Assembly: GCA_003427395.1 (NCBI GenBank)
Contig: BFEA01000007.1
Span: 4,471,248-4,535,247 of the forward strand
DNA: 64,000 bases
Reading direction: 5' to 3'
Source of the DNA: Chara braunii
Taxonomy: Eukaryota; Plantae; Charophyceae
Shown here: piece by piece, positions 1 through 48,410 of the stretch
Numbering within the stretch: position 1 is the first letter of the stretch
Layout of the letters: the number at the start of each line of letters is the position of its first letter
Program-made: the position numbers and the translations under genes
Notes under the pieces: model-generated
Told to the model about the DNA's origin: nothing
The model's database searches: none
The model's input: the letters and a program-made list of their open reading frames with translations, nothing else

Positions 1-670
1 ACAGTGCCGACTCTGGATCCCAACCAATAAAGGCAAGGAACGCATAACCGGCAAGAAAGACGAAAGGGTCGGTACACGCCCGCAAGAGCGGATCAACCCC
101 TCCCACCCAAAATCCAACTACGAACTTTTTAACTGCAACAACTTAAATATACGCTATTGGAGTTGGAATTACCGCGGCTGGTGACACCAGACTTGTCCTC
201 CAATGGATCCTCATTCAAGGAGTTTACGATTGTTCTCATTCCAATTATCGGACCCGAAAGAGCCCAGTATTGTTATTTATTGTCACTACCTCCCTATGTC
301 AGGATTGTGTAATTTACACGCCTGCTGCCATCCTTGGATGTGGTAGCCATCTCTCAGGCTCCCTCTCCGGAATCGAACCCTAATTCTCCGTCACCCGTTA
401 CCACCATGGTAGGCCTCTATCCTACCATTGAAAGTTGATAGGGCAGAAATTTGAATGGAACATCGCCGGCTCAAANGCCATGCGATTCGACAAGTCACAA
501 TGATTCGCCGCAACAACGGGCAAGCCCGGATCGGCCTTTTATCCAATAAATACATCCGTTCCAGAAGTCGGGATATGCTGCACGTATTAGCTCTAGAATT
601 ACCACGGTTATCCGAGTGGTAAGGAGACCATTAAATAAATGATAACTGATTTAATGAGCCATTCACAGTT
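1..670 (-). rRNA. 18S rRNA: 18S rRNA gene, ~nt 85-750 (to V4), decayed copy
   Basis: Reverse complement contains 18S landmarks (AATGGCTCATTAAATCAG, TAATTCTAGAGCTAATAC, AGGGTTCGATTCCGGAGAGGGAGCCTGAGA, CAGCCGCGGTAATTCCA). Many substitutions fall in invariant positions, so probably a pseudogene. Confidence 0.95.
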
Positions 671-1519
671 CAGTTGTTTAAAGGTTGTACAGGTTGGAGA
701 CAACCTTAGGGGGGTCCTTGTCGCACGGCCATTGAGGGCAGTCTCGCCAGACTGGCTGGCGCGTCGAGCCTTCCTACGCTCTCGGAGCGGGTACTACAGT
801 CGCCAAGCGAGACCCACTCTGACGGCCCTGCCCACAATGGTATCGTATGCTCTACCCGCTCCCCACACCCCCTAACACACACACACTCATTGGACCAGAT
901 GAGACACTCCAAAGACAACACACATCCTCACGTTTGGAAGATGGAAAGGTATCGACCACGTCCGACGCTCCGTGGCCGCATGCAACGCATCAGAGTACCC
1001 ACGAACTCAGACCATGATTGCCCCAGAGGTATTTGTGTCGGGAGGCATATCCCACCCAGTCGCACCCATATCACCGCGGCGCCCATCCCTGCTATGAAAG
1101 AGACCTGTCTGAGCTTGCCCTTCCATAAGGTAGCCTATGTCTACTCCTATCTATATCCCAACACTCCTACCCAGCCATGCGCCTCTACCCAACCACGATG
1201 GACCTGATTTTTTCAAGGTTTTTTTCTTATTTTTTTTCGGTAAAAACCCCCAAGCGGTAATAGCTCCCACAAATCAACGCGGCTCCGCTTTCGCGACCCT
1301 GTATTTTCTGTCAGGGCCCTCAACCCTCGTCGTGCCCGACTATTTTTATGCCCACACGGAAACCACTACATGCGCACAATACATGTGCCATCCCGACTCC
1401 CACCACATTGACAGTGCAAACCACAACCCCAAGGAGCAGACTGCACCCGAGACTCGATCCCCCCAACACCGACTCCAACCCGCAGCAGCCGGTGTGTGAA
1501 TGGTTGTGCGCTATGAGAG
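671..1519. mobile_element. ~850-bp non-coding insertion inside 18S with 7-bp target-site duplication
   Basis: 18S is interrupted. CACAGTT (664-670) and CGCAGTT (1520-1526) duplicate the 18S heptamer. No TIR or convincing ORF. Confidence 0.75.
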
Positions 1520-2982: not shown

Positions 2983-4428
2983 GTGCAAACGAGACTCCGA
3001 ACCGCTAGCCATCGACTGTTTGGCAGATTCGGAGGGTGCTCACTGAGCCATCCGTCGAGGGACCTGCACATGTTCCTTTCCAGCAGGCTGACTGAACAGA
3101 CCCCAATGCCAATGTTTCGCTCGGGACCTCATCCCTTTCTGCTCTCAATAAAACGCCTCTGGACCTTGGATCTTGGGAGACCCTTTTTCTCAAGGGTGTT
3201 CCTATGCCCGAGTGGCAGTGCGCGGTATCTGCTGCCCCCATAAAATTCGAAATTCAAAAGTTCATCCCATCTCCGTCCCTTCCACACACAAAGGGATAAG
3301 GGGAAGGACCGGTGTAGGCCAAACCCCGGTAGACTTTCGAGCCTTGGTCGACCCCACTACGGGTCCCAAATGGCTCGGCCCGCCCACGCTCATGCTCAGG
3401 GCGCGGGCCGTTCGTCGCAGGGTCACCCCCACCTAGTGCTTTGAGATGGATTGGGGTGGGCCATCGTGCGAGAGGGCTTTGACATTGGGGATGTAGCTCA
3501 GCCCTCACGCCGGGTGGTAGTCTCGCTGGTGATTTTCGCAAGCGCAAGTTTTTTATTCTTGATTATGTTCGCAGGCAATTGCTCCTTCCAATACTCAGGC
3601 AGTCCAAGGGGGTTTATTGAGAATTCCTCTTCTTTATGTACGTAGGCTAAGCGCCATCCTTAGGCCACGCACCATTTTCCTAAACACAGCAGTCCTGCGA
3701 CATCATCGGGGTGCGGTACCGCCGTCTTTCTACTAGCCCCCCGCCTTTTTTTTTTCTTGGTTTGACACATGCATCCCATCCATAGTTTCATTGCCTGCCC
3801 TTAGTCTTTCGGGGCTTTCATGTTGCATGCAAAGAATCACTCCACTCTTTCATCATGCAAGGCCACACCCCTCCCTCGATCCTTTGCCCAAAGCATCATA
3901 AACCAAAACCTGCCGCGGTAGAGTTCACACTGGGGCCTACGGCCCCTCCACTCGTTCATCTCTCCCCCCTTTCGCGTGCGTGTCCCTGACTCAGTCCCGC
4001 TCAAGTCATCCCGAGCTACTCACCTTCACCGTCCCACACAAAGGCAAAGACCGGTACAATCCCCAATTGGGGTCAACACATAGCCCTTCCCGCATGCCTA
4101 CTTTTCTTTCGATGCTTTGTCTTGCCCCATTCCTTTTGTCAAACACAACCAAGCTCTCTTCTTTTCATAGTCATGCGGTGCGGGTTCTATTTGAGTCAAC
4201 TGACCTTGCTTCAAGTTATATTTTTTCCAGAACTTTGTCTCCTCTCAGTCTTTCAAATGTCCTTCCTCTTCCTCCTTGGCGGCACAAGGGACCGACAACC
4301 CTTCCCTTGCCCTCTTTCTCCACCAAGTGAGGACTGTTTTCTTTCATCGTTCGTTCCCTGACAATGAAACAAGGAGAGTGGTGTAGGGTTAGTTATACGC
4401 CAATTGGTGGAGGAGAGACAAAGAGCGA

Positions 4429-4431
<3 letters not shown>

Positions 4432-4503
<72 letters not shown>
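4432..4503 (+). repeat. (GA)n microsatellite in LTR (counterpart ~33806-33862)
   Basis: Visible dinucleotide run. Confidence 0.95.
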
Positions 4504-4507
<4 letters not shown>

Positions 4508-4649
4508 AAGAATAGGTGAGAGAGAAAAAGAATAGGTGAGAGGGAGCAGAGAGGATGAGAGCGAGGGAGAGATAGGAAGAGAGAGAGGGAGAGAAAGATA
4601 AGGAAGGAGAGGGAAAATGGCAACTAGTCCTAATCAAATCATTCGTCCG

Positions 4650-4792
4650 TAATAGCAGCCAAATGTCGGCCACTCATCCCACAGTTGTAGCAGCCAAATG
4701 CCGGTCACCCATCCTGCAGTTTTAACAGCCAAATGTCGGTCACCCATCCCACAGTTGTAGCAGCCGAATGTTGGTCACCCATCCCACAGTTG
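4650..4792 (+). repeat. ~34-bp tandem repeat (GTAGCAGCCAAATGTCGGTCACCCATCCCACAGTT); also ~4998-5100 and ~34005-34145
   Basis: 3-4 adjacent copies at each site. Confidence 0.9.
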
Positions 4793-5328
4793 AAGAACAA
4801 TTAAGTGTGAAACGGAACACTACAACACACATGATTTTGACAAGGTGAAGGTTGAATAGATGAAAGCACATGCTCATGAGTGGAAAAGCAAACAAGTGTG
4901 AAACGGAACACTACCACTCACATGGACTTGAGGGAGAGAAAGAGAAGGAAGGAGAGGGAAAAGAGCAACTAGTCCTAATCAAATCATTCGTCCGTAAGAG
5001 CAGCCAAATTTCGGTCACTCATCCCACAACAGTAGCAGTCAAATGTCGGTCACCCATCCCACAGTTGTAGCAACCAAATGTCGGTCACCCATCCCACAGT
5101 TGAAGAACAATTAAGTGTGAAACGGAACACTACCACACACATGATCTTGACAAGGTGAAGGTTGAATAGATGAAAGCACATGCTCATGACTGGAAGAGCA
5201 AACAAGTGTGAAACGAAACACTATCACCCACATGGACTTGACAAATTGAAGGTCGAACTAGTGAAAGCACATGCTCATGGGTGGAAGAACAAATAAGTGC
5301 GGAACGGAATACTATCACACACATGAAC

Positions 5329-6303
5329 GAGAGATGGTTAACCGGTGCATATATTTTCAGGTCTCCTTTCCAGGCAGTTCAGCCACTGTAGGTTACTACA
5401 CCACTTTCAGATTGTGTGTGAATCTATATATGGGGTTGCCTGAAACCCCCTTCAGGCAGTTCAACCACTTCAGGTTGATACACCACTTTCAGATTCCCTA
5501 CAGATCCATTGCAAATGGTGGGATGGGGGTACCTGAAACCCCTTTCAGAAGCTTCAGCCACTTCAGCGGTTTCAGGTCCCCACCTGAAATTCCTGAAATG
5601 ACCTGAAGTGGCTGAAGCTTTTGAAAGGGGTTTCAGGTACCCCCATCCAACCATTTGGATGGGGGTGCCTGAAACCCCTTTTTAAAAGCTTCACCCACTT
5701 CAGCAGTTTCAGGTCCCCACCTGAAATTCTTGAAATGACCTGACGTGGCTAAAGCTTCTGAAAGGGGTTTCAGGTACCCCCATCCAACCATTTGGATGAT
5801 GGTACTTGAAACCCCTTTCAGAAGTTTCAGCCACTTCAGCGGTTTCAGGTCCCCACCTGAAATTCCTGAAATGACCTGAAGTGGTTGAAGCTTCTGAAAG
5901 GGGTTTCAGGTACCAATTCCAACCATTTGGATGGGGGTACCTGAAACCCCATTTAGAAGCTTAAGCCACTTCAGCGGTTTCAGATTGAAATTCCGGAAAT
6001 GACATGAAGTGGCTGAAACTTTTGAAAGGGGTTTCAGATATCCCCATCCAAGCATTTGGATGCGGGTATCTGAATTCCCATTCAGAAGCTTCAACCACTT
6101 CAGCAGTTTCAGGCCCCCACCTGAAATTCATTAAATGATATGAAGTGGCTGAAAAAACAGACAGGAAAAAAAAAAAAAAACCTTGTCATGCAAACCACCC
6201 GAAACTTTTGAAATGACCTAAGTGTCTTTAGGCTATTTCAGCGGTTTCGGACCACTTCAGAATCTTTCATTCTGAAATTCTACGTGGTCGTTAACCGCGA
6301 GTG
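5329..6303. mobile_element. Non-autonomous DNA transposon (GGTTAAC-end family) with ~136-bp palindromic internal repeats
   Basis: Absent from the 5' LTR copy (34273-34290). GGTTAAC at positions 8-14 from both ends. 8-bp TSD ACATGAAC/ACATGCAT. Confidence 0.85.
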
Positions 6304-6311
6304 ACATGCAT

Positions 6312-7745
6312 TTGGCAAGTGAGAGTGAGAGTAGTGAAAGATCAACATATAAGAAGTTGAACAACTAAATGAGAACCGGAACACTACCGAGACTACAGAC
6401 TTGAAAAGGTGAGAGTAAGCACATACACATGAGAAGTTGAACAACCAAATGAGAACCGGAATATTACAAAGTCATGAACTTGACAAGATGAGATAAAACA
6501 CATACACATGAGAAGGTGAACAGCCAAATGAGAACCGGAACACTACTAAGAGTATGAACTTGACAAGGTGAGGGTGAAAGCACATACATATGAGAAGTTG
6601 AACAGCCAAGTGAGAACCGGAACACTACTAAGTCATGGACTTGACAAGATGAGGGAAAACACATACATATGAGAAGTTGAACAACCAAGTGAGAACCGAA
6701 ACACTACTAAGTCATGAAGTTGACAAGATGAGAGAAAGCACATACATATGAGAAGTTGAACAACCAGGTGAGAACCAGAACACTACCAAGAGTTTGAACT
6801 TGGCAAAGTGAGAGTAAGCACATACACATGAGAAGTTGAACAGCCAAATGAGAACCGAAATACTACTAAGTCATGAACTTCCCAAGATGAGAGAAAACAT
6901 ATACACATGAGAAGTTGAGTAACCAAGTGAGAACCAAAACACTACTAAGTCATGAAGTTGACAAGATCAGAGAAAACACATATATATGAGAAGTTGAACA
7001 AGTAATTGAGAACCGGAACACTACCAAGAGTACGAACCTGACAAGGTGAGAATAAGCACATACACATGAGAAGTTGAACAACCAAATGAGAACCGGAATA
7101 CTACCATGTTATGAGATTGACAAGATAAGAGAACGTACATACACATGAGAAGTTGAACAGCCAAATGAAAACCAGAACACTACTAAGAGTATGAGCTTGA
7201 CAAGGTCAGGGTGAAAACACGTACACATGAGAAGTTTAACAGCCAAGTAAGAACCGGAACACTTCTCAGTCATGAACTTGACAAGATGAGGGAAAACACA
7301 TACATGTGAGAAGTTGAACAGCCAAGTGAAAACCGGAACACTACTAAGTCATGAAGTTGACAAGATGAGAGAAAACACATACATATGAGAAGTTAAACAG
7401 CGAAGTGAGAATCGGAACACTACCAAGAGTTTGAACTTGACAAAGTGAGAGTAAGCACATACACATGAGACGTTGAACAACCAAATAAGAACCGAAATAC
7501 TACTAAGTCATGAATTTGACAAGATGAGAGAAAGCACATACACATGAGAAGTTGAACAGCCGAGTGAGAACCGGAATACTACGAAGTTATGAAGTTGACA
7601 AGATGGGAGAAAGCACATACATATGAGAAGTTGAACAACTAATTGAGAACCGGAACACTACCAAGAGTACGAACCTGACAAGGTGAGAGTAAGCACATAC
7701 ACATGAGAAGTTGAACAGCCAAATGAGAACCGGAATACTACCATG
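6312..7745 (+). repeat. ~80-bp tandem array (~18 monomers) with 8-mer higher-order period of ~637 bp
   Basis: GAGAACCGGAACACTAC recurs every 79-81 bp; variant order repeats at 6371, 7008 and 7644. Confidence 0.9.
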
Positions 7746-8465
7746 AGTTTGATCTTGACAAAGTGAAGATTGAACTAGTGAAAGCACATGTACATGGGTG
7801 AAAGAACAACCAAGTGTGAAACGGAACACTACCACATACATGAACTTGACAAAGTGAAGGTTAAACTAGTGAAAGCACATGCACGTGAGGGGAAGAGTCA
7901 TCAAGCGTGAAACGGAACACTACAACACACATCATCTTGATAAGGCGAAGGTTCAACTAGTGAAAGCACATGCACATGAATGAAAAAGCAACAAAGTGTG
8001 AATCAGAACACTACCACATGCTTGAACTTGACAAAACGAAGGTTGAACTAGTGAAAGCACACGCACATGAACGAAAAAGCAACCAAGTGTGAAACGGAAT
8101 ACTACCACATGCTTGAACTTGACAATATAAAGGTTGAACTATTGAAAGCACACGAACATGAGCGGAAAAGCAACCGAGTGTGAAACGGAACACTACAACA
8201 CACATGAACTTGACAAAGTGAAGATTAAACTAGTGAAAGTACATGCACATGAGTGGAAGGGCAACCAAGTGTGAAACGGAACACTCCAGCACACATGAAC
8301 TTGACAAGGTGAAGGTTGAACTAGTGAAGGCACATGCACATGAGTGGAAGAGCAACCAAGTGTGAAAGGAAACACTACAACACACATGAGCTTGACAAAA
8401 TGAAGGTTGAACTAGTGAAAGCACATGCACATGAGTGGAAGAGTCACCAAGTGTGAAACGGAACA
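7746..8465 (+). repeat. ~91-bp tandem array (also 4793-5328, 34146-34280)
   Basis: AAGTGTGAAACGGAACACTAC...GAACTAGTGAAAGCACATG recurs at ~91 bp. Confidence 0.9.
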
Positions 8466-10405
8466 CGACTTAACTACTATGTGATTGAAAGCATGGGCTA
8501 GACTAGATCAAAACCCAAGATTGGAGCATGACAAGCAATCAAGAATCAATTGGGACATCACGTACTAGTATGTGAATGAATAGTATGAACTAGACTAGAT
8601 CAAAGCACAAGATTGAAGCATGAGATGACCTAAGGAAGAATCGAGACATCACTAATTACTATATGAGTGAAAAACACGAGTTAGACTAGATCAAAACACA
8701 AGTTTGAAGCACGAGATCATCCAAGGAAGAAGCGGAACATCACCTACTGTCATGTGAGTGAAAAACATGAGTTAGACTCAGATCAAATCACAAGATTGAA
8801 GCATTAGATCAACCAAGGAAGAATCGGGACATCACCTACTACTATGTGGAGGAAAAGCATGAGCTAGACTAGAGAAAAACACAAGATTGAAGCATGAGAT
8901 AATCCAAGGAAGAAGCGGAACATCACCTACTATCATGTGAGTGAAAAACATGAGTTAGACTAGATCAAAACACAAGATTGAAGCATGAGATCAACCAAGG
9001 AAGAATCAGGGCATCACCTACTACCATGTGAGTGAAAAACATGAGCTAGACTAGATCAAAACACAAGTTTGAAGCATGAGACCAACCACGGAAAAATCGA
9101 GATATCACCATGTACAATATGAATGAAAAACATAAGTTAGACTAAATCAAAACACAAGTTTGAAGCTTGAGATTAACCAAAGGAAGAATCGGGACATCAC
9201 CTACTATTATATTAAAGAAAAGCATGAGCTAGACTAGATCAAAACACAAGTTTGAAGCATGAGATCAACCAAGGAAGAATGTGAACATCACCAATTACTA
9301 TATGAGTGAAAAGCATGAGCTACACTAGATCAAAACATAAGTTTGAAGCATGAGATCAACCAAGGAAAAATTTGAACATCACCAACTATCATGTGAGTGA
9401 AAAGCATGAGCTAGACCAGATCAAAACACAAGTTTGAGGCATGAGATCAACCAAGGAAGAATCAGAACATCACCAATTACTATATGAGTGGAAAGCATGT
9501 GCTAGACTCGATTAAAACACAAGTTTGAAGCATGAGATCAACCAAGGAAGAATCGGAACATCACCAACTATTATGTGAGTGAAAAGCATGAGCTAGACCA
9601 GATCAAAACACAAGTTTGAAGCATGAGATCAACCAAGGAAGAATCGGGACATCACCTACTACCATGTGAGTGGAAAGCGTGAGCTAGACTAGAGAAAAAC
9701 ACAAGATTGAGGCATGAGATCATCCAAGGAAGAAGCGGAACATCTACTATCATGTGAGTGAAAAGCATGAGTTAGACTAGATCAAAACACAAGATTGAAG
9801 TATGAGATAAACCAAGGAAGAATCGAGACATCATATGTGAAGGAAAAACATGAACTATACTAGAGAAAAACACAAGATTAAAACATGAGATCATCCAAGG
9901 AAGAAGCAGAACATCACCTACTATCGTGTGAGTGAAAAACATGAGTAAGAATAGATCAAAACACAAGATTGAAGCGTGAGATCAACCAGGGAAGAATCGG
10001 GACATCACCTACTACTATGTGAGTGAAAAACATGAGCTAGACTAGAGAAAAATACAAAATTGAAGGATGAGATCATCCAAGGAAGAAGCGGAACATCATC
10101 TACTATCATGTGAGTGAAAAGCATAACTTAGACTAGATCAAAACACAAGATTGAAGCGTGAGATCAACCAAGGAAGAATCGGGACATCACCTACTACTCT
10201 GTGAAGGAAAAGCATGAGCTAGACTAGAGAAAAACGCAAGATTGAAGCATGAGATTATCCAAGGAAAAAGTGGAACATCACCTACTATCATGTTAGTGAA
10301 AAGCATGAGTTAGACTAGATCAAAACACAAGATTGAAGCATGAGATCATCCAAGGAAGAATCGGAACATCACCTACGACTATGTGAGTGAAAAAGCATGA
10401 GCTCG
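8466..10405 (+). repeat. ~88-90-bp tandem array (~22 monomers)
   Basis: TAGACTAGATCAAAACACAAGATTGAAGCATGAGATCAACCAAGGAAGAATCGG recurs regularly. Confidence 0.92.
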
Positions 10406-10419
10406 GCTAGGGTCTCTAG

Positions 10420-10471
10420 GAAGGAGAAGAGGAAGAATAAGAAGAAGAAGATAAAGAAGAAGGAGAAGAAA

Positions 10472-10503
<32 letters not shown>

Positions 10504-12582: not shown

Positions 12583-14192
12583 GCTCCTAGGGGGCTTCAT
12601 TTTGTCTCCGTTATTCCTAATTTTCAGCCCCCAATGCTCCGATTTTCTTTGGACAGCCTATTATCTCATGCCTAACTAGTCCGGGATATCTCGGACTGCT
12701 GGGCAGCCCTCCTTGCACCATTATTCCACTTCCTTTTCTCTCATGACTCTCTCACTTGTCCCCACTAGTGGTGCTAATATTTTCTACGGTATAGATCCTC
12801 GATCTTGAAGGCGCCATTTGCTTTGTGCAATTATTTCTTTTGTTGGCTCATGGTTCCCTTTGGACATCTCAAGTCCCCGCCACTTTCCCCGTACTAATCC
12901 CGTTTTCTTCTCCCGCTGGTAGTCCGACCAGTAGTCCCGCCGGCGCATACCCCATTTTTTCACTATTATTATTTGGACCACTTACTCCCCGACAACATCC
13001 CGGATGGTGTCCCATTTTTATTTTGGGACCTCATTGCCCTTGGTGACTCCAATATCCCTTTCTTAGGTGCCACATGTGTGCCGATTTTTCTTTGTCGCGA
13101 GATCTCATCTCATGGTTGTCGTTTACCGTCTTTTCTTGCCCCGTGTCAAAATCACTTATCTCTAGCCTTTTGGGCTTGTCGTGGCCTATTTTCTTTTACC
13201 CTAGGCATCCTTATGCAGTCCGTTATTTCTCGGACTGCAATCGTGGTCATTTCCCTGGTCCCACAACCCCACAACTTGCCCCACACTAAAAGAAAATGAA
13301 ACGTTTAATTCCCAAGTGCATCCGGGCTCAATGTTGATTTCGGATGCACTTAAAACATGTGTTTTCCCTTCCCCATGCAGTCCGTTGCAACTCGGACTGC
13401 AATAGGGGTCAATTCCCTAGCCCCAATGCCCCACAACTAGCCCTCAACAGACAACGTCCAAGTGCATCCAGACTCAATTTTGGCTCCGGATGCACCTAAA
13501 ACATGTGTTTCTCCTTCCCCATGTAATCCGTTGTATTTCGGTTGCATGGGGCCTTAATTTTTCTTGATTTTCTTTGCAAAATCAAAAGAAAATCAAGGTC
13601 CTTTGCAACCACCATATTCCAGGATGAATTTGGTCATGGATGTATCTCTTCAAGTGACTGTTTTGACCGTGAAGGTCTTTTTCTCTTTTCTTTATTTTCT
13701 TTTATTTTCTTTTTCTTTTTCTTCCTTTCTTGGACAGTAGGGACCTGCCGGTCCCTACTTGTGGCAGTCCCCACTGACGGCCAACTCACTCACTCTCTCT
13801 TACTTTTTTTGTCTTATTCTCCCATTTGGTTTTTTTTTTTCTTTTTTTTTTCTTAGCATGCCAAGTGTCAAGTGGTCGTTAAGGCTCTTTTCTAGGCGCT
13901 CCCTCTTAGTTTTGACCCTTCCTATGCCCAAGATGCAGTCCGTTATATCTCGGACTGCAATAATGGCCTCCTCATGCCCATGGGAGCTTCCTTGTACCTT
14001 TATTTTTCTCCCACAGTGGCGCCTCCTACTCCGATTTTCTCCCGGATGCCTATTTTTTACATGGGGACTCTTTTGACTCAATTTTCTCGAGGGAGGATGA
14101 TCCAAGATTTTTCGGATTGCTCTCATGCCTCCCACTTCAAGTTTCTTTACTTTTTCTTTTCATTTTGGCATTCCTGTTCCGCCAGTGGTCTC

Positions 14193-14440
14193 GACACTTT
14201 GTCCCGCCGATGGTCCCCGACACCTTGTCCTATCGGCGGTCCCCAATACTTTTTCCCGTCGGCGGTCCCCGACACTTTGTCCCGTCGGCGGTTCTCGACA
14301 CTTAGTCCCGCCGGTGGTTCCAAACACTTTGTCCCGTCGGCGGTTCTCGACACTTAGTCCCGCCGGCGGTCCCCGACACTTAGTCCCGCCAGTGGTCCCC
14401 GACACTTAGTCCCACCGGTGGTCCCTGACATATTTTGTCC
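14193..14440 (+). repeat. 26-bp GC-rich tandem repeat (~9 copies)
   Basis: GACACTTWGTCCCGYCGGYGGTYCCC recurs every 26 bp. Confidence 0.9.
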
Positions 14441-15214
14441 CAGATACTATTATTTTTTACTTAGTCTCACGTAACCCCTGATGCCTTTCCCCCCAAGGTG
14501 TCCCACGTTCCTTGGGCGTCTGTCGCTCCATGGCGACCCCTTGTCTTTTCTCGGGCTTCGCGGGCGTCGGTTTTCTCCGACCGCGGGGTCTTCAATCCGA
14601 GGCTCCTGCTAATTGTCATGAGCGGTCCCCATGTTGGCCCCTTATTTTCTAGCGTCCCATGGTCACCGGGGCCGTCCACCTCCCGGCTGCCTTATTCTCT
14701 CGTCGTCCGCCGCGCCGCATTTTGAAAGTTGACGGCCCCTCAGCCTTAGTCATGCCGAATTTCAACGGCCCTCCTGGCCTCATGTTATACCCCTATGCGC
14801 CAATGTCCTCGCGCTTACTTGCTTGTCGTCGCTGGTTCTTTCCCCCTGCAGTTCTCAACCCAGGGCACCGTTCCTTCCGGCAGCCTAGTCCATTGTTTTT
14901 TTTTTCTCTCTCGTCTCCTTACGCCATATTTCTCTGTAGTGCAGAAAGTGGCTATATACAGATTCTCGAGTGACGAGATGTTATTCAGGACCCACAGGTC
15001 CCGACACATTCCCCTCACTCATTTGCGATGTTCTCATCGCGCACTAGTCCTTTGTCAGTAGGGAGCGAGGAGGAGAGACGTGATGGGTAGTTAGTTTGTC
15101 AGGGTCCTTTTTGTCTTTTCCTTGTTTCTTTCCCAAGGTCTCTTCTTGTCTTCGCTCCTTGGGGCGGGGAGGGGTGTGTGGAGGGTCGAATTCTCTTTGT
15201 CTTTCGGGTTTCTC

Positions 15215-15410
15215 CCATCTCATTCATCATTCTCATAACATCAAGCATTTTTTCGTCTCATTCATCATCCTCAGAGCATCAAGTTTTTTTTTGTCTCATT
15301 CATCACCCTCAGAGCATCAAGCCTCTTTTCGTCTCATTCATCACCCTCAAAGTATCAAACCTCTTTTCGTCTCATTCATCACCCTCAGAGCATGAAGCCC
15401 CTTTCGTCTC
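15215..15410 (+). repeat. ~38-bp tandem repeat (~5 copies)
   Basis: TTTTCGTCTCATTCATCACCCTCAGAGCATCAAG recurs. Confidence 0.85.
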
Positions 15411-15844
15411 GTTCCTGCGGTCCATCCCTCTTACCCCAGCCTAGTCGTCCGTCCCCCGACTTCTTGGTACATTCCTTCTCTACATCGACTTTTTCGCCCT
15501 TGCAGCTCGTGTACCAAGCCATCTTTTCCCCCCTCTCGAATGCCATATTTCCCCCTTGTCTGACCCTGCGCCCGCTTGAGGCCTCTGGTCAAGTTCGTTT
15601 TTCTTTCATTCAATGTCCTCCGCCTTTTCATAAGCTTTCTTATTCATTCTCATGCTATCTTCCTCTTGCACATTTCATAGTCATTTTGCTAGGCCTTTCT
15701 TAAATTCGGGCTTGGTCGATTCTCCCATACCTCTTTTTCTGTTCTTATATCAAGTTTTTCTCAACCTCAGGCTTAATTACTTTTGCATACCCCCAAGCTC
15801 CAACCTGGTCTTTTTCGCATATATGTCTCACAATTATTTTACCA

Positions 15845-16410
15845 GGTTTTTCTCAACCCGGCTTAGTCTATTTCCATGTACACTCCTTACGGACACCTTG
15901 CCAGACTTTTTCCCAGACTTAGCTCGGTCATTTCCTCATACATTTTTCACGGACATTTTGCCATACTTTTCTCAGGCCTAGCTCAGTCGTTTCTACATAC
16001 ATTTCTCCCGGGCATCTTGCCAGATTTTTTTCAGGCCTAGCTTAGTCATTTTCACAAACATTTCTCACGGGCATCTTGCCAGACTTTTCTCAGGCCTAGC
16101 TTAGTCATTTCCACAACCATCTCTCACGAGCATCTTGCCAGACTTTTCTCAGGCTTAGCTTAGTCATTTCCACAAACATTTCTCACGGATATCTTGCCAG
16201 ACTTTTCTCAGATCTAGCTTAGTCATTTAAAAATACATTTCTCACGGACATCTTGCCAGACTTTTCTCAGACCTAACTTAATCATTTCCAAATACATTTC
16301 TCATGGGCATCTTGCCAGACTTTTTTTTTAGGCCTAGCTTAGTCGTCTCCATATTCATTTCTCACGAGCATCTTGCCAAGCTTTTCTCATGCCTAGCTTA
16401 GTCATTTCCG
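15845..16410 (+). repeat. ~59-60-bp tandem repeat (~9 copies)
   Basis: TTTTCTCAGGCCTAGCTTAGTCATTTCC...GGGCATCTTGCCAGAC recurs. Confidence 0.9.
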
Positions 16411-19905: not shown

Positions 19906-21081
19906 TTACCCTTTTACCCTAGTACCATCCAAATCCTCAAACTCGAAACTGTTCATCCCCAGCCTCTTGGCGACCCGGTAGAGCCCCTTGAATCTTCTCC
20001 CCAGTTGTCCTGACCAGGTACTTTCTAATGCAGAATTTCTGACTAGGACCATTTCCCCCACTTGCAGTGGTTCTTTTCTTATGTTCCGCAACTGGTCCCA
20101 TCTTGCTTTGTCCTTCATTCTGCTATCCAGAACGCAGCTCACCACTTCGTCTGTGGCCTCCTCATTTTGGATAATCTGTTAGCACCTGACCTTAATTAAC
20201 TGTTCCGTCGTCAAGCGCGGGTCATCATTCAGTTTATTCCAAGTCGGTACTAGAGCTTCTATTGGGAAATCGATTTCCCTCTCATACCATAATTCAGCCG
20301 GAATACATCATGTGGTCCATTTTGGAGTCATGTTGTCTTCGAACACTGCTTGCTTAAGGTACTTAGGCCAGTTCCCAAGGTCGTCAGCTGCTAACTTTGC
20401 GATCGTGTTCTTAAGCGTCCGATGCCCTCTCTCCACGGGCACGTTAGCTTCCGGGTGGTACGACTCAATTAACTTGATGGGCACCCCAAGTCTTTTGCAT
20501 GTACTCAACACGTCCTGGTTCACGAATTTTATTACATTATCGGCTATAAATCCTCTGATAAACGGGTGCCTTAGGTAGAAGTCCTCAATCCATTCAGCTA
20601 CTGCCAGTCCCGTTTTCTTCTTAAGAGCTATTGCCTCCACAAATCCACTAAGATTATCCCTGGCGTCAAGTATGTACCTGTATCCTTTTGTATATACTAG
20701 TATAATCACGAGATCGAGGTGGACGAGATGTCCAGGTCCTAGCACTCGCGTTGGTCTCAAAGGCTCGAAGACTTGAGTCGTACGTCGCTCTTGACAGATC
20801 AAGCAGGTTTGGCAATACGTGGCGACCATACTCCCCATTCCAGGCCAGAAGTAAAGTGACACTATTTTTGCGAGGGTCCCTTTTGAGGAGCCCTGTCCTC
20901 CTGCCAACCCGTCATGCATCGCCAGAATTATGTTTACTTGCCTCGATCGTCCACATACCACCCTTCTAGGCATTAGGCCTTTCTCTCTCCTAAACAGGTG
21001 TCCGTTTTTTAGTACATACTTATCGGCTTCCTCTCTGGTCTTGAGGCTAACCTCCTGGGAATCCTTGTTTCCTACTAGCAA
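19906..21081 (-). pseudogene. pol: Integrase (HHCC remnant, DDE core, GPY/F-like C-terminus), disrupted
   Basis: HDGLAGGQG...CQTCLICQ, LVHLDL, FIADN, ERGHRTLK, FKGLYRV; stops and frameshifts; no chromodomain seen. Confidence 0.92.
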
Positions 21082-21256
21082 CAGTCCAATTGCTCTGAAG
21101 ATCCCATCGTATGAATGAATAAGAAAGAACGCCTTTTGATCCTGACAATTTTCTTGTCCATCTTGTGCTTGATTTACTAGGTATTGCTGCCGCTTTTGTT
21201 CTCAAGATTCAACTAAGCTCATAACCGACCCCGTCCTCCTTCTATTGCTAGTGTCA

Positions 21257-21939
21257 TTAGTTCTTCCTGAGGCCCCACAGTGCCACCCCACGAATCCTTC
21301 CTTCCTTTCGATCGGACCTTATAAGTGTTCCTTCCCTAAGTTTTGCCACCACTGTCGGAGATCCTTTCTCCAACGCCCTGATCAAAAACTCGTCGGAGGT
21401 GCAGGCAGGCTCTATCATTTCGTTATCAACCACCAGGTTCCCTCCCTCATAGTCGAGAAATGCATCGATAGGTTTCGCATCCTCTACTCCTTCTGGCATA
21501 ATGCATACTCTGCTCAAGCCATCGGTCATGTTCCTAAGTTCTGCTATGCGCTCGATCTTGTAATCAAACTGCCAAATGAGCCTCACCCATCTCCCCACGG
21601 TAGGGTCTATAGGTTTGTAATTCTTGCAAGCCCCAGCGATGTTTGTTCGATCTATCCTTTGGATGAACCTCCTTCCAAAGGGGTAGGCTTGGAAGGTCGT
21701 GAGGCAGTGAAGGACATCCAACACTTCCTTCTTGAACTGGGAGTAACGACGCTCAGCTGAGTCAGCGTTCTACTCTCGAATCTGATTGACCGCTCCCTTC
21801 CATCTTCCCCTCTTTGGATCAGGACTCCTCCCACAGTCAGTGGTCCCCCATCGGTCTCAAGTACAAACGGGCGACCTACCTCGTTGTTGAAACACGGAGC
21901 GGCCAGGGTGACTTGTTTTGACGTCAGGATGTCTTTCAA
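21257..21939 (-). pseudogene. pol: Ty3-type RNase H, frameshifted
   Basis: PFVLETDGGP-VGGVLIQ, RFESRTL, GRRF..RID, RWV..IWQFDYKIERI, N.TDGLSR. Confidence 0.9.
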
Positions 21940-23072
21940 GGTCTGAACGGCGACTTCTCATTCCTCCGTCCAATCGAGCGAACCCTCTTCGCGAATCATG
22001 GTCCGGATGGGCTCTGCTATCTTAGTGAATCCTTTGATGAAGATCCTCCAGAACCTCACGACCCCTAGGAAGACCCTTACCTCCGTTGTAGTCCGCAAGG
22101 GCGTCGACCATTGAGAAATTTTATCAATCTTCGTTGGGTCGGGCTTTCTTCCATACGACCCGTAACGGCATCCTATGAATCTATGATAGTTACTTTTGGA
22201 ACTGCCAGGATGATCTTGGGGCCACTAGCAGTGATGTTATATTCCAGAAACCTTCCGAAAAGTTCTTTAATATCCTGCTGGTGGTCTCACACAAATTTAC
22301 ATACCCCTGGTTGAATTTTCGTCTCATCCTTGTCTCGCGAACCCTTGATCGGATTGTCATCAATGTATGGCTCGCACTTTGCGGGGAACATATCTCCCGC
22401 AACTGCGAGCATCCTTCTTTGTGCTTTTGCCACGACATTGGTGAAGCCCATATGAGTCACTTGCATTTGCAATTGCCCTACCGAGGTATGCATAGTCGTG
22501 TAAGGTCTATCCCGGGCGCCCAGCGGGAGCTGATCATACCCAGAATAGAGGTCTATCAATGAATAAATGCTTCGTCTGGCGTGAGATTCTGCCAGCAGGT
22601 CTGCTTGAGGCAGTGATCCCGCATCTCGGATGATGACAACATTCAATTTCTGCAGATCCTGGATCCACCTAAGCGACTTGTTAGGTTTCCGGAATACAAA
22701 CCACTTATTTGCATATGGTGAGGCGGTGGACTCTGCAACTAAGGAGTCCATCTTTGCTCCAAGGAGTTTTATTACTTCCCCTGCCACCCCAAAGTCGTAG
22801 GCAGGCCCTTTGTCGTTCCAGCATTCGTGCTCGACTGTGTGGATCTTGACCGGGGGTATCAGCTTCGCATCTAGTCGTCCCTTTTGATGGTCGTTAAAAA
22901 CAAAAGCTAGATGGAATTCATGGCATGCTTCCTTGATCAGGCATGCCTCCCGTTCTGTCAAAAATCCTTCAACCCCTATCTTCATGGTCTTTGCTACCTC
23001 GTCTGGTATTCGATGCCCTTCTGTTGCCATTTTTTCCCTAATCACCCGGAGCACTTCCTCCTCCTTTTCCAT
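21940..23072 (-). pseudogene. pol: Gypsy reverse transcriptase, disrupted
   Basis: SPYANKWFVFRKPNKSLRWIQDLQKLN, YSLIDLYSGYDQ, MGFTN, PYIDD. Confidence 0.95.
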
Positions 23073-23125
23073 GGCTTCTTCCTTTGTTGTTTTTAGCAGG
23101 ACCGAGACAGGCTTGGCTTTCTTTC

Positions 23126-24368
23126 CTACTGGCTTGTACTTGCGAATGCTTCCTTCCAGGATCTTTCTCCTAAAAAATGAACGGCTGGAATTGCCCGTGG
23201 TGTCTCGACCATTCGAGGCTGGATACTGATCAATTTTCCATTTAGGCAGTAACCCCTTTGGACTTCTCCCTCAAACTTGGCGAGTGTGGTCGGGTTCACA
23301 CCCATTTTGTGGTACCTGATGACTTTGATGAGGTGCAGTAGGTCCGGAACTTCCAGTGTTATCCGGGCCTCCTCATCTCGGGCCTCCTTCGGTCTACGCA
23401 ACTTGGCTCCCAATTCGACCTCTGTCTCTTTCTCTACTACCATTACTCCTAGGGCATCGTCCTCATGTCTGCGCTTTTTCTGTGGTAGCCCCATTTTGAT
23501 CCACTCCTTTTTGTTGAATGCTTCTTCGATCATAATTTCTACCCTTTTATCTCATCCCTTTCATCCGCGCGAAGGCCCCCTTTCTTGCGCTCTCTTCAAA
23601 TGATGGTGACCATGTTGCTAATTTTCCCTTTGGCGTGTCCCCGCCTGTTCCAATGAGACGGAGCAGCTCCCCACGTCCTGTCACCGGGTCTTCTATGTCT
23701 ACCATGTATGTCCCATCATGCAGGTGCATTCCTATCATCTTCACATTTGCACACCAAGGTCTCTCAAGGATTACGTCGTGATCCATCTCGTCCATCACGG
23801 TCATCCGCTGGAAGGACCAAATTGACTCCCAGACCCCAGCTTTGACTGCCTACTTAGTAACATACCCAGAGAAGGGAATTTCCCCGCCTGCCCCTCGGAT
23901 GCTTCCAGTTGTTTCCTTATTTATTGGGCATCTCGTAGCCTTTGCAAAATCTTTCCTGATGAGCGTAATCTCAGCCCCGCCGTCTACCAATGTGTCAGTA
24001 TGGTGACGTCCGACCTGGACTTTCAACTTGCCTACAGGTAGTGCATGAAAACTAAGCTTCGTTCCGGGTGGCGCTCTCATAACTTCGCCGCCTTCCTGGT
24101 CGGGCAGGCTTAGTTGGATGTCTGCGAAAACCTTTTCCAGGTCTTCTAGGTCTCTGGGAATCCTTTGAAGGTTGGCGGCCTCTTGCGGTGCCTCTTCCTC
24201 CTTTTCCTCCCCCTGCGGTTGCGGTCCTTCCTCTACTTCTATTCTTTGTCTTGTCAGCAACTGCCTGAGGCCTTTTAGGAGCCTAGGGCTTGCCTGCAAC
24301 ATGGTTTGAAACGAGACCGACACCATGGTTTCTAGCAGTTTGTTAAGGGTGTCGTCGATCTCGAGCAT
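23126..24368 (-). pseudogene. pol: Retropepsin-like aspartic protease and spacer, disrupted
   Basis: LVDGGAEITLI active-site motif, IRGAGG flap, DVILERPW (ILG.PW-like). Confidence 0.88.
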
Positions 24369-24601
24369 AGCCAGAATAGGGATCTGGTACCGAAACTTCT
24401 TTTTCGTCGAGGTTGCTTTGTCTATCGGGGCTTCATCTCTAGGCTTACCGTAAACCCTTTCCTATTTCTGCGCCTCAGTTTCCTGCGGTGCTCCCGGACC
24501 ATCCCCTACATCTTCCATGACTGCGTCCTTACGTTTACCCGGTCTCGGTCGTCGCTTTCTAAGATAAAGTTGACCTGCGGTCCGCGTCCTCGTGCCTGTT
24601 C

Positions 24602-32149: not shown

Positions 32150-32168
32150 ATACCCGACATCTCCACCC
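32150..32168 (-). promoter_or_regulatory. Primer-binding site complementary to tRNA-Ala 3' end
   Basis: Plus strand ATACCCGACATCTCCACCC versus recalled plant tRNA-Ala 3' end ATACCCCGCATCTCCACCA; 4 nt inside the LTR edge. Confidence 0.8.
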
Positions 32169-32172: not shown

Positions 32173-33801
32173 TGTAGGGCCAAACCCCGGTAGACTTTCG
32201 AGCCTTGGTCAACCCCACTGCGGGTCCCAGTTGGCTCGGTCCACCCACGCTCATGCTCAGGGAGCGGGCCGTTCGCCGCAGGGTCACCTCCACCTAGTGT
32301 TTTGAGATGGATGGGGGCGGGTCATCGCGCGAGAGGGCTTTGACATTGGGGATGTAGTTCAACCCTCACGCCGGGTGGTAGTCTCGCTGGTGATTTTCGC
32401 AAAAGCAAATTTTTTATTCTTGATTATGTTTGCAGGCAATTGCTCCTTCTAATACTCAGGCAGTCCAAGAAGGTTTATTCAAAATTTCTCTTCTTTATGT
32501 GCGTAGGCTAAGCGTCATCCTTAGGCCATGCACCATTTTCCTAAACACAACAGTCCTACGACATCATCCGGGTGCGGTACCGCCGTCTTTCCCCTAGCCC
32601 CCCGCCTATTTATTTTTTTTGTTTGACACATGCATCCCGTCCATAGTTCCGTTGCCTGCCCTTCAACGGAAAAATTTCCTAAAATTAAATAATCATTCTA
32701 TCGTAAAATTACCATCTGAATTTTAAAATTTCATTTCATCTTAAAAAATATCATTCAAATTTTAAAATTTTTCATCTGACTTGCAAACTTTCATTCCAAA
32801 AATAGGGTATCCCTTCTTATTTGGACTGCATTTTAGAGATGGAATGAAAGTCTGGATGAGTTCATGAAATATTTTAATTGGGCTGTCATTCTAAGTAAGG
32901 ATTTACAATCATTAATAGGTTAATCCAATCCAAATTAGAAGATATTTGTTGTAGTGGAATGAAAATTTAATTAAAATATTTCATAAACTCGTCCAGGCTT
33001 TCATTCCATCTTGAACAAATAGATGTAGTTGGAATGGAAAGCTCATATTTAGACGGGAATGTATCAGATAAAACTGAAAATTTTAGAGTTGGACAAGCAT
33101 TGGAATGATAATTTATTAATATGAAGGATTTTTTTTATGGAATGTTTTTTCAACTTTCATTTCTTGTGGGAATTTTTCTGTTGTTACTCTTTCCGGGCTT
33201 TCACGTTGCATGCAAAAAATCACTCCACTCTTTCATCATGCAAGGCCACGCCCCTCCTTCGATCCTTTGCCCAAAGCATCTTACACCAAGACCTGTCGCG
33301 GTAGAGTTTACACTGGGGCCTAAGGCCCCTCCACTCCTTCACCTCTCCCCCCTTTCGCCTGCGTGTCCGTGACCCAGTCCCGCTCAAGTCATCCCAAAGA
33401 GCGAAGGCAAAGACCGGTACAATCCTCTATTGGGGTCAACATATAGCCCTTCCCGCATGCCTACTTTTCCTTCGATGCTTTATCTTGCCCCATTCCTTTT
33501 GTCAAACACAACCAAGCTCTCTTCTTTTCATAGTCATGCAGTCCGGGTTCTGGTTGAGTCAACTGACCTTGCTTCAAGTTATACTTTTTCCCGGACTTTG
33601 CCTCCTCTCAGTCTTTCAAATGTCCTTCCTCTTTCCTTCTCTACGGCACAAGGGACCGACAACCCTTCCCTTGCCCTCTTTCTCCACCAAGTGACGACTG
33701 TTTTCTTTCACCGTTCGTTCCCTGTCACTGTAACAAGGTGAGTGGTGTAGGGTTATGTTTACGCCAAAGGGTGTAGGAGAGAGAGAGATAGCGAGATGAG
33801 G

Positions 33802-33873
<72 letters not shown>

Positions 33874-34934
33874 GAGAGAGATAGTAGGTGAGAGGGAGGA
33901 GAGAGGATGAGAGCGAGGAAGAGATAGGAAGAGGGAGAGAGAAAAAAAAAAGAACGAAGGAGAGGGAGAAAGGCAACTAGTCCTAATCAAATCATTCGTC
34001 CGTAGTCGCAGCCAAATGTCGGTCACCCATCCCACAGTTGTAGCAGCCAAATGTCGGTCACCCATCCCTCAGTTGTAGCAGCCAAATGCCGGTCAGCCAT
34101 CCCACAGTTGTAGCAGCCAAATGTCGGTCACCCATCCCACAGTTGAAGAATAAATAAGTGTGAAACGGAACACTACCACTCACATGAACGTGACAAAGTG
34201 AAGGTCGAACTAGTGAAAGCACATGCTTATGGGTGGAAGAACAACTAAGTGCGGAACGGAATACTACCACACACATGAACTTGGCAAGTGAGAGTGACAG
34301 TAGTAAAAGCTCAATACATGAGAAGTTGAACAGCCAAATGAGAACCGGAGCACTACCACGAGTACGAACTTGACAAGGTGAGAATAAGCACATACACATG
34401 AGAAGTTGAACAACCAAATGAGAACCGGAATACTACCAAGTCATGAACTTGACAAGATGAGAGAAAGCACATACACATAAGAAGTTGAACAGCCAAATGA
34501 GAACCGGAACACTACTAAGAGTATGGATTTGACAAGGTGAGGGTGAAAGCACATACACATGAGAAGTTGAACAGCCAAGGGAGAACCGGAACACTACTAA
34601 GTCATGAACTTGACAAGATGAGGGAAAACACATACATATGAGAAGTTGAATAGCCAAGTGAGAACCGGAATACTACTAAGTCATGAAGTTGACAAAATGA
34701 GAGAAAGCACATACATATGAGAAGTTGAACAGCCAAGTGAGGACCGGAACACTACCAAGAGTTTGAACTTGACAAAGTGAGAGTAAGCACATACACATGA
34801 GAAGTTGAACAACCAAAAGAGAACCGGATTACTACTAAGTCATGAACTTGACAAGATGAGAGAAAACACATATACATGAGAAGTTGAACAGCCAGGTGAG
34901 AACCGGAACACTCCTAAGTCATGAAGTTGACAAG
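32173..34934 (-). repeat. 5' LTR remnant (U5 side), truncated at 34934
   Basis: Roughly 90% similar by eye to 3313-6965, with the same repeat arrays. Confidence 0.88.
32664..33183. mobile_element. AT-rich MITE with ~16-bp TIR and 2-bp TSD (TT), possibly CACTA/CMC-like
   Basis: Absent from the 3' LTR at ~3802; ends CAACGGAAAAATTTCC ... GGGAATTTTTCTGTTG. Confidence 0.8.
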
Positions 34935-36237
34935 CACTTCAGGTCATTTCAGAGGTTCAAGTTGCCCCACCCGAAACTCTTGAAATGACATGATGTGGCA
35001 TACAACAACATTGGACAAAAAGAAAACAAGTGACCCCCCCCAATAAAATTTAACATCGAAACCAAACCTGGAACTCTTGAAATGACTTGAAGTGTTTTCA
35101 TGCCATTTCAACGACTTGAGACCTTTGCTAACAAACTTCAGAATCTTCAATTGTGAATTTTCAGTTGGTCATGAACCACTTATGTTTGTGATCCCACGAT
35201 CAATGTTTTATGCATATTTATTGAGGAAAGAAAAAAATTTTAATTCCTCTTCTCTCTTGTGCAAAGGGAGTTTCTTATCAATTTCTTCCCCCCTTGCGTA
35301 TGCCCAATCCCAATGAGGGGCGGGTTCGGCATAAGCCGATAACATTTTCAGTATTTTTCTTTTGTTGAAGTTTGAGCAAGAATCTCAATGGCATAAAAAT
35401 TGTTTCGATTGCGGATGTGTGGAGGGCGTCATGATCACTGATGATTGAATTCACATTTTTTTTTCATAAATTAAACAGTTATTTTTTTCACTATAATTCT
35501 TGTTCAGAAATTTCACACTTATTTTTTTCACAATTGGATCATTTGTCATATGATGGTTGGGAGGCACTTGACCATTATTTATGGGTCTTTCTCCGATTTC
35601 TCTCTTACTATAAAATTGTAGTAAACCTGTCGGACGTGTTGCAAAAATGTTATACACTTTTGGGCATGTGATGTCACATGAAGAGTCGTTGAAAGTGGAA
35701 CCCTGGACCCGGTTTCCGACAGGTGACGCTTACCCACCATCTCGGATAGCAGCCCCGACCCAGCAGTCTGATTGGGAAAAGAAAAGGAAGAAGTTGACTA
35801 TCTCAGCTGGTGAGCAATAAGTGTGCCCTAGGTGGTCATGGGGATCCATGACCTCTTGAATGCTTTACTTGCATGCCTTACCAACTGGGTTTTCCTATTT
35901 TTATAAGTCAAATCTTGACAGAATTTTTTTTCAAGTTTTTTCTATTATTAGTATTACGGGGAACTCCAACCACATCCATGTTCATGCCTCCAACGAAAGG
36001 CACATGCAGAGTTGCTGAGATACTTGCTTCAGCTGGTGGTCGACACTCGTCAGATGTCAGCAAATAGCATCACAAAACCATGCCATCTATTATACAAATG
36101 TGTCTCCCTTCCAGTCCCCTTCCCTTACGAACATCAACAGTCTATTATGAATGTCAATTGGGGGGTACCAACGGGTTACATTTCTATTGCAGACAACAAG
36201 TGTATCCAGGAAGGTATACTACTGTCTTCCCCCGAAC
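34935..36237 (+). repeat. Partial third copy of the downstream duplicated segment
   Basis: Matches ~46346-47655 and ~58660-59706. Confidence 0.85.
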
Positions 36238-42499: not shown

Positions 42500-42705
42500 G
42501 TGCTGCTAAATTTGTGGTGCGGCGGCACTTGATTTTCTTTTGGCAGGGAAGTGTTGCCGGATTTGCGGCGAGGCGACACTTGATTTTTCTTTTGGCGAGG
42601 AAGTGCTGCTGGATTTGGGGCGCGACGGCACTTGATGTTTCTTTTCTTTTAGCGGGAAAGCGCTGCCGGATTTATGGCGCAGCGACACGGTTTTTCTTTT
42701 TCTAC
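42500..42705 (+). repeat. ~51-bp tandem repeat (4 copies; also 53765-53890)
   Basis: GCTGCCGGATTTGCGGCG..GCGRCACTTGATTTTTCTTTT recurs. Confidence 0.75.
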
Positions 42706-43678
42706 GGCGCGGCATCTGTTATGTTTGATGAGGTTGTGCTACCAGAATTGGAGTGTGAGGTGGCAACAACTTGACGTGGTGGCAGTTGGCACGCGGCGCA
42801 TTATGAAATCTGCGTGAGGAGTGAATGTTGGTGGCATAGAACCATCAGGGACCACTTGGGACCGGTTGGGATAGACGTGGAACGAGTTGGGACTGTCTTG
42901 GAAACAACATTTTTTTTTTAGGGGGACTCGTGCGACTTGCCGCCGTCGAATCTGGGACTACCGCGTGTGGGACGTGCGAGTCAGGAACAAATTGGGACAA
43001 GCAGTTGATTTGAGACTTACCTTGGGACTGCAGTTTTCTTTGGCGACAAATATATTCTTTCTTGACTTTCTTGAGTGAGCCAGGGCATGTTCGACACCAC
43101 TTCACTCAAGGTCACTCAGTAGACGACTCAGACTCCCTTCACACCTGTGTGCACCCACACATTGCTTGACCCTTTCGCTTTGAATGTTCAGAAGAAAAGG
43201 TTGAGTGGGATTGTGGGCGTCATGCATGAGTGAAAAGGTGGGTCTGATGTGAATAGTGGGACTTTGCTTGTGTTGTGCAGGTAGGTAGAAGGATGCTTGC
43301 AAAGGAGATTGATTATGCCTATTTGAGAAAATGGAAAAGGAGTGTCTTCTCTTGACTTCTCACCTGCCTGTATGCCAAAAAGGGTTGGTTGTTTTGAATT
43401 AATTTTGTGCGCACCGTAAAACGAGTTCGATTGAAATATAGCAGATAAGGTCAGATGGACTTAGCCTTTCCCAAGGATTGACCCTTTCTATCCTGGATGA
43501 CTTTATCCACCTTTACATGTCCAAATGATTCTCATTCTCCATCACCTCTGAACTTTTTTCGTCTAAATTACCTTAGGCACGAGAGGATGAAAACAACTGA
43601 AAATTTCCTTGTGGTGAACACATTCTCTTTCTTCAGGAAGCATATGGGGCGAGGGTTCGTTGCTTTAGGAGCCGACCC

Positions 43679-48108: not shown

Positions 48109-48176
<68 letters not shown>

Positions 48177-48410
48177 ATGCTACCAAAGTAGGCGTTGACA
48201 TTCAGGAAAAAAAAAGATATATTTGAATACAACAATGTTTCTCTTCCTGAAATTCAAATATAACGCATATGGGTATTATTCGAATAGAACGAATATGCGT
48301 TATATTTGCAGTGCTCTTGTATTCGGAAAAAAAATGTATAACTTTTTAAAAAACGTTTTTTGGGGAAAACTCGAATACAACGTATATGCGTTATGTTCAG
48401 GGGAAGACGG
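47643..48410. mobile_element. Tc1/mariner (pogo-like) MITE, TA TSD
   Basis: ~33-bp TIR CCGTCTTCCCCCGAAYATAA.GCATAT.CGTTG, flanked by TA. Confidence 0.85.

Follow-up and report, generated by a model that had tools for sequence, protein, structure and literature searches.

A candidate second primer-binding site for tRNA-Ala in the U5 of a giant Ty3/gypsy element of Chara braunii

Introduction

The primer activation signal of HIV-1 is a U5 motif upstream of the primer-binding site (PBS) that is masked by structure and pairs with the tRNA strand freed by annealing to the PBS; the pairing involves about 8 nt and the T arm of tRNA-Lys3. Extra contacts with the primer, involving its T, D or anticodon arms, are documented by experiment for Ty1 (PMC3592414), Ty3 (PMC5371799) and the gypsy element of the fly (PMC1635307). 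The second site of Drosophila gypsy binds the tRNA, yet it is dispensable for cDNA synthesis (PMC1635307). Priming by tRNA-Ala is described in one survey as rare in plant gypsy lineages, with the exception of Selgy (90% of 114 elements) and Athila (4%) (PMC6317226). In the literature that we covered, which lies mostly outside subscription papers, we found no plant or algal element with an extended primer contact, and no such contact made with the first 15 nt of a tRNA. A review notes that Tca3 seems to use a distinct minus-strand mechanism, and a similar arrangement might already be in print for that element.

Here we analyse a stretch of 64,000 nucleotides from contig BFEA01000007.1 of Chara braunii (hereafter the window), for which an original prediction, made from the letters alone, had proposed that the U5 of an LTR element pairs with tRNA-Ala at two blocks besides the PBS. 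The precedents for pairing outside the PBS on which that proposal drew, Ty1, Ty3 and HIV, are established cases, and so is the fly gypsy element.

Results

The element and its LTRs

The window holds a giant Ty3/gypsy LTR retrotransposon on the minus strand with broken reading frames. Its broken pol (20308..24461, minus strand) gives domain matches to protease, RT, RNase H and integrase in Ty3/gypsy order; the integrase profile scores above its curated cut-off and the protease, RT and RNase H profiles below theirs, the frames being broken. The closest relatives come from the same alga, since 11 of the 14 integrase matches are named Chara braunii (66-81% identity; the remaining three are metagenome proteins at 55-59%), as are all 105 of the 105 RT matches. 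LTR A (3313..7857, minus strand), which is the 3' LTR or a solo LTR, has its CA terminus (element strand) at 3313, and LTR B (32173..34934, minus strand), which is the 5' LTR with the PBS next to it, is split by a 520-nt insertion. The two form a direct repeat that starts from 3313 and 32173 and is 91% identical across the first 490 nt, the far ends being unplaced; at the located end, the direct LTRs end CA and the PBS lies just inside the 5' LTR. The element RNA corresponds to the minus strand and therefore has complementarity to the tRNA in the block described below as well as in the PBS. On the element strand, an AAUAAA-like signal (3552..3557, minus strand) precedes the block by about 50 nt, which suggests from sequence that the block sits at the start of U5. 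Ten reads of one RNA run overlap the stretch in part and are not taken as evidence.

Assignment to a known lineage was approached from several sides. Tat/Ogre/Retand was ruled out, as the window segments and the close Chara polyproteins are without an aRH domain and the PBS is of the Ala type, the PBS of those lineages being mostly Arg or Lys in the lineage table of the survey (PMC6317226). Troyka was also ruled out, its termini being CG...CG and the LTR of this element ending CA. The Atlas cluster nearest to a family polyprotein (score 0.97) is mostly from Basidiomycota, the phylum being known for five members; of ten relatives at 30-41% identity, nine are unnamed and the tenth is a 'hypothetical protein'. 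We regard this Basidiomycota-type cluster as a lead to a possible kinship with Ylt1-like elements. The LTR-end 25-mer had 0 matches in metagenomes, and no integrase or polyprotein relative with flanking DNA was confirmed in viral contigs or prokaryote genomes; one weak match of 28 residues (L170) came from a further search of this kind. One family copy was recovered from a metagenome (L166) and is 80% identical to the window over 1142 nt.

Several other features of the window were recorded. At positions 1-758 (minus strand) Rfam finds a eukaryotic 18S rRNA gene that is truncated by the start of the window, so that a decayed 5' part is present. The 520-nt insertion (32664-33183), found in LTR B only, is AT-rich and MITE-like; its terminal inverted repeats are imperfect, some 15 nt long and begin with CAAC, and there may be a TT duplication. 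Tandem arrays (79/80, 91, 137, 26 and 59 nt) occupy 4900-10500 and 14163-16383, in and beside LTR A and in the 3' internal region. Two tandem copies of a unit of about 10 kb, 83-97% identical in pieces, lie at 42579-53560 and 53763-63392; the unit has 137-148-nt repeats in common with LTR A and a 1.3-kb stretch in common with 34931-36236. The U5 block and PBS of the Chara gypsy family were not found in 42579-53560 or 53763-63392.

The PBS and the identity of the primer

The PBS (32151..32168, minus strand) is an 18-nt sequence of the tRNA-Ala 3' end type, which reads as tRNA nt 59-76 and lies 4 nt from the LTR end. It had been predicted to match the 3' end of tRNA-Ala some 180 nt from the block; the match is confirmed, and the distance is indeed 180 nt. 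The window copy is without the first PBS base; in family depth drawn from three runs of one sample, and among the rows listed (40 of 189), A is present at 32168 in ~100%, which gives the full CCA. Among the same rows, position 32160, corresponding to tRNA position 68, is C in 87-88% of depth and T in the rest, a polymorphism that suggests two primer isodecoders or subfamilies. By inspection, the PBS of L166 differs at 3 of 19 positions from the Arabidopsis AGC 3' end plus CCA, two of the differences being compatible with G-U wobble and one being a mismatch (the 3' end is from a primer table in PMC6152437). To judge by sequence, the differences may reflect either a host isodecoder with G5-C68 or, as in Ty3, a PBS that is not copied anew from the primer; with a G5-C68 primer, block position 5 becomes a wobble.

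Block and PBS hold both halves of one acceptor stem, including G3:U70, which we take to be the identity pair of tRNA-Ala. Self-pairing of block and PBS would give a C-A mismatch at G3:U70, so a tRNA partner fits better. In viral contigs the PBS-type 16-mer occurs at 40 loci, none of which is a eukaryotic tRNA-Ala. The family PBS 16-mer with CCA was seen in T-arm contexts in viral contigs at L121, L124, L126, L128, L129, L156 and L159; by eye, these contexts resemble tmRNA 3' ends, ARAGORN having been run in tRNA mode.

A U5 block complementary to the tRNA-Ala 5' end

The block, which on the element RNA is complementary to tRNA-Ala nt 1-15, is present in both LTRs, as the original prediction had stated. 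In LTR A it is an exact match, GGGGATGTAGCTCAG (3487..3501, minus strand), and in LTR B, GGGGATGTAGTTCAA (32348..32362, minus strand), it has two changes with respect to the exact 15-mer: one at 32358 that is private to this copy (99.8% of family depth has C, among the rows listed), and one at 32362 that is the common A15 form. At up to three mismatches, these are the only places in the window that match the 15-mer. The claimed identity with the 5' end of plant tRNA-Ala holds against published sequences, the reference here in place of the host's own tRNA: the 15-mer equals the 5' end of wheat tRF-Ala-AGC, and the A15 form equals that of UGC, which has A at position 15 (PMC8722339). The match begins precisely at G1 of the tRNA, on the pairing-competent strand, and runs through nt 1-15; nt 16-19 do not pair. 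A collinear extension to nt 16-34 was considered and is unsupported (p 0.08 and 0.17, or 0.24 and 0.42 with the block kept).

A plant-like viral-contig locus (L094), identical to wheat AGC in its first 25 nt, served as proxy tRNA-Ala. Motif loci in viral contigs (A or G at position 5) number 120, at 88 of which ARAGORN calls a tRNA that starts with the motif, 54 of these 88 being Ala; L094 belongs to this set of loci. When the proxy was compared with either strand of 500 shuffled LTR bases in 3000 trials, with position and strand free, the longest exact match reached 15 nt in 0/3000 and 14 nt in 1/3000. Complementarity to a primer-type tRNA outside the PBS (to plant and proxy tRNA-Ala, the host's own being represented by these) is present and non-random, and at the level of sequence the 15-nt block is a genuine, non-random feature.

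The case is different for the further block that had been claimed, GCGAGAGG. It does occur at 3468..3475 (minus strand) and 32329-32336, exactly where it had been placed. However, the proxy tRNA-Ala finds matches of at least 8 nt in 1578/3000 shuffles, so an 8-mer by itself is not informative; moreover, the last G of GCGAGAGG (3475) reads A in 99% of family depth, which leaves 7 nt in the family, the copy L166 breaks it, and it forms the 3' arm of the outer stem of a local predicted hairpin. It is better read as a hairpin arm, and is likely derived from chance or from the hairpin. The proposal of three tRNA blocks in permuted order is consequently not upheld; judged from sequence, the well-supported blocks are two, the 15-nt block and the PBS.

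Conservation across the family

Conservation was assessed over 3420-3545 in 1035 and 1213 contigs of one sample, in which the contigs drop rare variants. Another letter is present at 2% or more at 13 sites, and 3452 and 3475 are near-fixed differences of the window copy. Within the block, 14 of 15 positions are below 2% variant across more than 1000 family contigs; the single polymorphism, 3501 G>A at 29-31%, alternates as the AGC and UGC isoacceptors do, and the A form, which is the UGC form, still pairs with G15. No site between 3478 and 3500 is polymorphic at 2% or more, and the nine block positions that are unpaired in the predicted fold (3487-3490 and 3495-3499) are all invariant. The original prediction had asked for conservation relative to the flanking U5, and here the outcome is mixed: the block is near-invariant, but it does not rise above most of its flank, with polymorphic sites (at least 2%) at 1/15 positions of the block against 9/90 of the rest of the well-covered 3425-3529. 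The polymorphic sites in 3425-3529 are mostly at or beside CpG, and the block contains no CpG. We conclude that the block is conserved, but not demonstrably above background. Past 3530 the depth drops from ~45,000 to ~200, which implies that the subfamily of the window leaves the majority there and that the terminal 220 nt are common to both.

In L166 the block is intact in the A15 form, a retention to be read with the fact that this copy was retrieved by a pattern containing the block. Its identity to the window is 0.95-0.97 in the 40-nt windows that hold the block (highest or tied-highest), compared with 0.82-0.95 elsewhere in the terminal domain, 0.68-0.95 in the leader and 0.50-0.90 deeper in the LTR. 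The pattern of PBS plus block was found 0 times in viral contigs and gave nine matches in the whole metagenome collection, one being this family copy and eight unrelated. A second family was not found in viral contigs, metagenomes or prokaryote genomes. Over 32345-32436, a few contigs of low depth skip or replace the block region, and rare copies without the block may exist.

Predicted RNA structure and energies

The block is held in a predicted hairpin at 3465..3512 (minus strand) in LTR A (z -3.8, 0/200 shuffles) and at 32326..32373 (minus strand) in LTR B (z -3.15, 1/200 shuffles); in L166 the hairpin has z -0.8. It is predicted to consist of the outer stem with the GCGAGAGG arm, a 4-bp inner stem (3491-3494), an internal loop (3495-3499) and an apical loop of 5 nt (3486-3490), in which four C's (3487-3490) are complementary to G1-G4 of the tRNA. 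In 48 of 50 fold windows this CCCC loop is unpaired at 0.6 or more. It could also pair with GGGG runs in other parts of U5. The family change at 3475 and the polymorphism at 3501 each turn a G-C pair into G-U and keep the stem; two-sided covariation was seen in 0 of 61 pairs in the consensus fold of three copies. According to these models, the local hairpin could itself maintain the block sequence. For a conserved 8-nt segment next to it (3513..3520, minus strand; 32374-32381 in LTR B), fold windows of the RNA without primer predict pairing with the PBS; a weak pairing with the tRNA D loop is the alternative. The pairing with the PBS reaches at least 0.5 in 16 of 25 windows for L166 and in 5 of 25 for LTR B, so masking of the PBS is window-dependent, and the pairing with the D loop is not significant.

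Predicted duplexes with tRNA nt 1-15 amount to -31.0, -29.2 and -22.5 kcal/mol, which become -14.2, -13.5 and -8.3 kcal/mol net of the opening costs on both sides; these energies refer to the proxy tRNA and ignore modifications, tertiary structure, loop closure and crossing topology. The modelled cost to free nt 1-15 is 8.1 in the intact tRNA and 8.4 after annealing to the PBS, and with costs so nearly equal the model sets no order of events.

Discussion

The arrangement of sequence and predicted fold leads us to suggest that the U5 block probably works as a second primer-binding site, one that would capture the tRNA strand freed by annealing to the PBS. The original prediction centred on a second pairing that captures the acceptor/D strand once it is displaced, and this core is favoured by the orientation, the tRNA identity, the predicted net binding of -8 to -14 kcal/mol and the exposed CCCC; the version with three blocks is the part that fell away. 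The process may be pictured as follows. Nucleotides 59-76 of the tRNA would anneal to the PBS and free the 5' strand of the acceptor, whose G1-G4 could then dock on the CCCC loop; from there the pairing would run on as far as nt 15 and open both the weak inner stem and the D stem. The two ends of the tRNA would in this way be held either side of a folded U5 domain of 180 nt. Such a clamp would prevent the acceptor stem from closing again, stabilise the loading of the primer and perhaps also gate initiation; it would last until a late stage of strong-stop synthesis, when RT displaces the 5' helix.

Other origins for the block have to be weighed against this one. A chance match is refuted for the 15-nt block: loose matches, at up to three mismatches, are expected 1.5 times per window, and eight of the nine metagenome matches to the combined pattern proved unrelated, but the exact 15-mer never arose in the shuffles, even with position and strand free. 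More serious, although we consider it distinctly the less probable, is that the block is a captured relic, a piece of tRNA-Ala copied once into U5 by read-through of RT into its own primer or by a template switch, and kept ever since by the U5 fold or by expansion of a master copy, with no binding of primer. Read-through would be expected to yield precisely this orientation and tRNA identity, the block is no more conspicuous than the rest of the terminal 220 nt, all of which is conserved, part of the block pairs inside a significant hairpin, and tRNA nt 17-22 and 27-32 each have a collinear 6-nt echo after the block, such as a longer, decayed capture might leave. However, these echoes are not significant (p 0.08-0.42), the nine block positions that have no partner in the predicted fold are invariant as well, and the match starts at G1, in an exposed loop.

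The original prediction had offered, as its own alternative, that the block is a target for 5' tRNA-Ala fragments. In this reading, fragments made by the host would lead Argonaute to the element RNA, which would be cut or repressed. Fragments of this kind exist, since 5' tRF-Ala(AGC) is abundant, DCL1-made and AGO1-bound in Arabidopsis, and Athila6A is cleaved by a 5' tRF (PMC13390833); nt 1-15 pair perfectly with the block. We nevertheless think it improbable as the main function: the pairing ends at nt 15 of a fragment of 19-25 nt, a family of high copy number should lose a site that serves silencing alone, yet the site is fixed, and the use of the same tRNA at the PBS would be left unexplained. 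Targeting by such fragments is possible as a side effect of a second primer-binding site, but it gives no account of why the site is retained. Least plausible of the readings that involve a tRNA, and largely refuted, is that the LTR retains what is left of a tRNA-derived Pol III promoter or SINE head, of the kind seen in Helenus and TRIMp3. The block holds the first half of an A box, and tRNA-like sequences, Ala types included, are known in LTRs (PMC10886601), but in LTR A and L166 the ~200 nt downstream contain neither a full A box nor a B box, LTR B has a single B-like motif that arises from its private mutation inside the block, and neither ARAGORN nor Rfam calls a tRNA. The block is, moreover, antisense to an element that is large and coding, and Kojima saw no complementarity between the tRNA-like parts of Helenus and their PBS (PMC10886601).

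We therefore retain the second primer-binding site as the best reading of the block. An extra primer contact through tRNA nt 1-15 in U5 is one that we did not find described, and it is best seen as a new variant of the multipartite PBS of Ty1, Ty3 and gypsy. A fuller scheme can be drawn from the models, which we put forward tentatively and with appreciably less conviction: the U5 leader may be an undescribed toehold switch that masks the PBS with the adjacent strand and shows the CCCC loop, so that tRNA-Ala would be loaded by both ends, its D loop perhaps resting on the masking strand once this is released, and U5 would stay clamped until RT removes the 5' end; the design may run through Ala-primed Selgy and Ylt1-like elements. 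If the second site is real, it shows the fate of the displaced acceptor strand during priming and gives a rule that can be scanned for in any LTR library, namely that U5 contains a complement of the primer 5' end. A further prediction is that such an element would be vulnerable to 5' tRFs, much as the PBS is to 3' tRFs.

The HIV-1 primer activation signal, as it is generally understood, resembles the Chara block in lying in U5 upstream of the PBS, and differs from it in that the Chara block matches 15 nt of the acceptor/D strand and has a predicted loop as toehold. The extended PBS of Ty1 (box 0, 1 and 2.1) and the bipartite PBS of Ty3 likewise pair with the primer tRNA outside the PBS, D arm included (PMC3592414, PMC5371799), the pairing in Chara being predicted; in these elements, too, the PBS need not copy the tRNA perfectly, and that of Ty3 is not re-copied from the primer (PMC3592414, PMC5371799). 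The geometry is different in each case. The Ty1 boxes adjoin the PBS (PMC3592414), whereas the Chara block is 180 nt off, and the second part of the Ty3 site is ~4800 nt away in U3 (PMC5371799), whereas the Chara block is in the LTR end upstream of the PBS. Ty1 and Ty3 use the T and D arms of tRNAiMet (PMC3592414, PMC5371799), and Chara would use an unbroken 15 nt against nt 1-15 of tRNA-Ala, the displaced acceptor strand; the freed 5' end of the Ty3 primer, unlike that proposed here, is described as self-dimerising (PMC5371799).

The Drosophila gypsy element also has a second site for its own primer tRNA, which was likewise spotted by sequence complementarity, but that site is 11 nt long, lies at the 3' end of the genome and addresses the anticodon and T stems, where the Chara block is 15 nt long, lies in the LTR end and addresses the 5' end of the tRNA (PMC1635307). 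Helenus and TRIMp3 share with Chara a tRNA-like sequence within the LTR; however, they are small and non-autonomous, carry A and B boxes and show no connection with the PBS (PMC10886601), whereas the Chara element is giant and coding, without promoter boxes, and has an antisense block and a PBS for the same tRNA. Among the non-chromovirus gypsy elements, Selgy is similar in its Ala PBS (PMC6317226), and a possible likeness to the Ylt1-like group is indicated by the nearest cluster being mostly from Basidiomycota, where Ylt1-like elements occur (PMC2864245).
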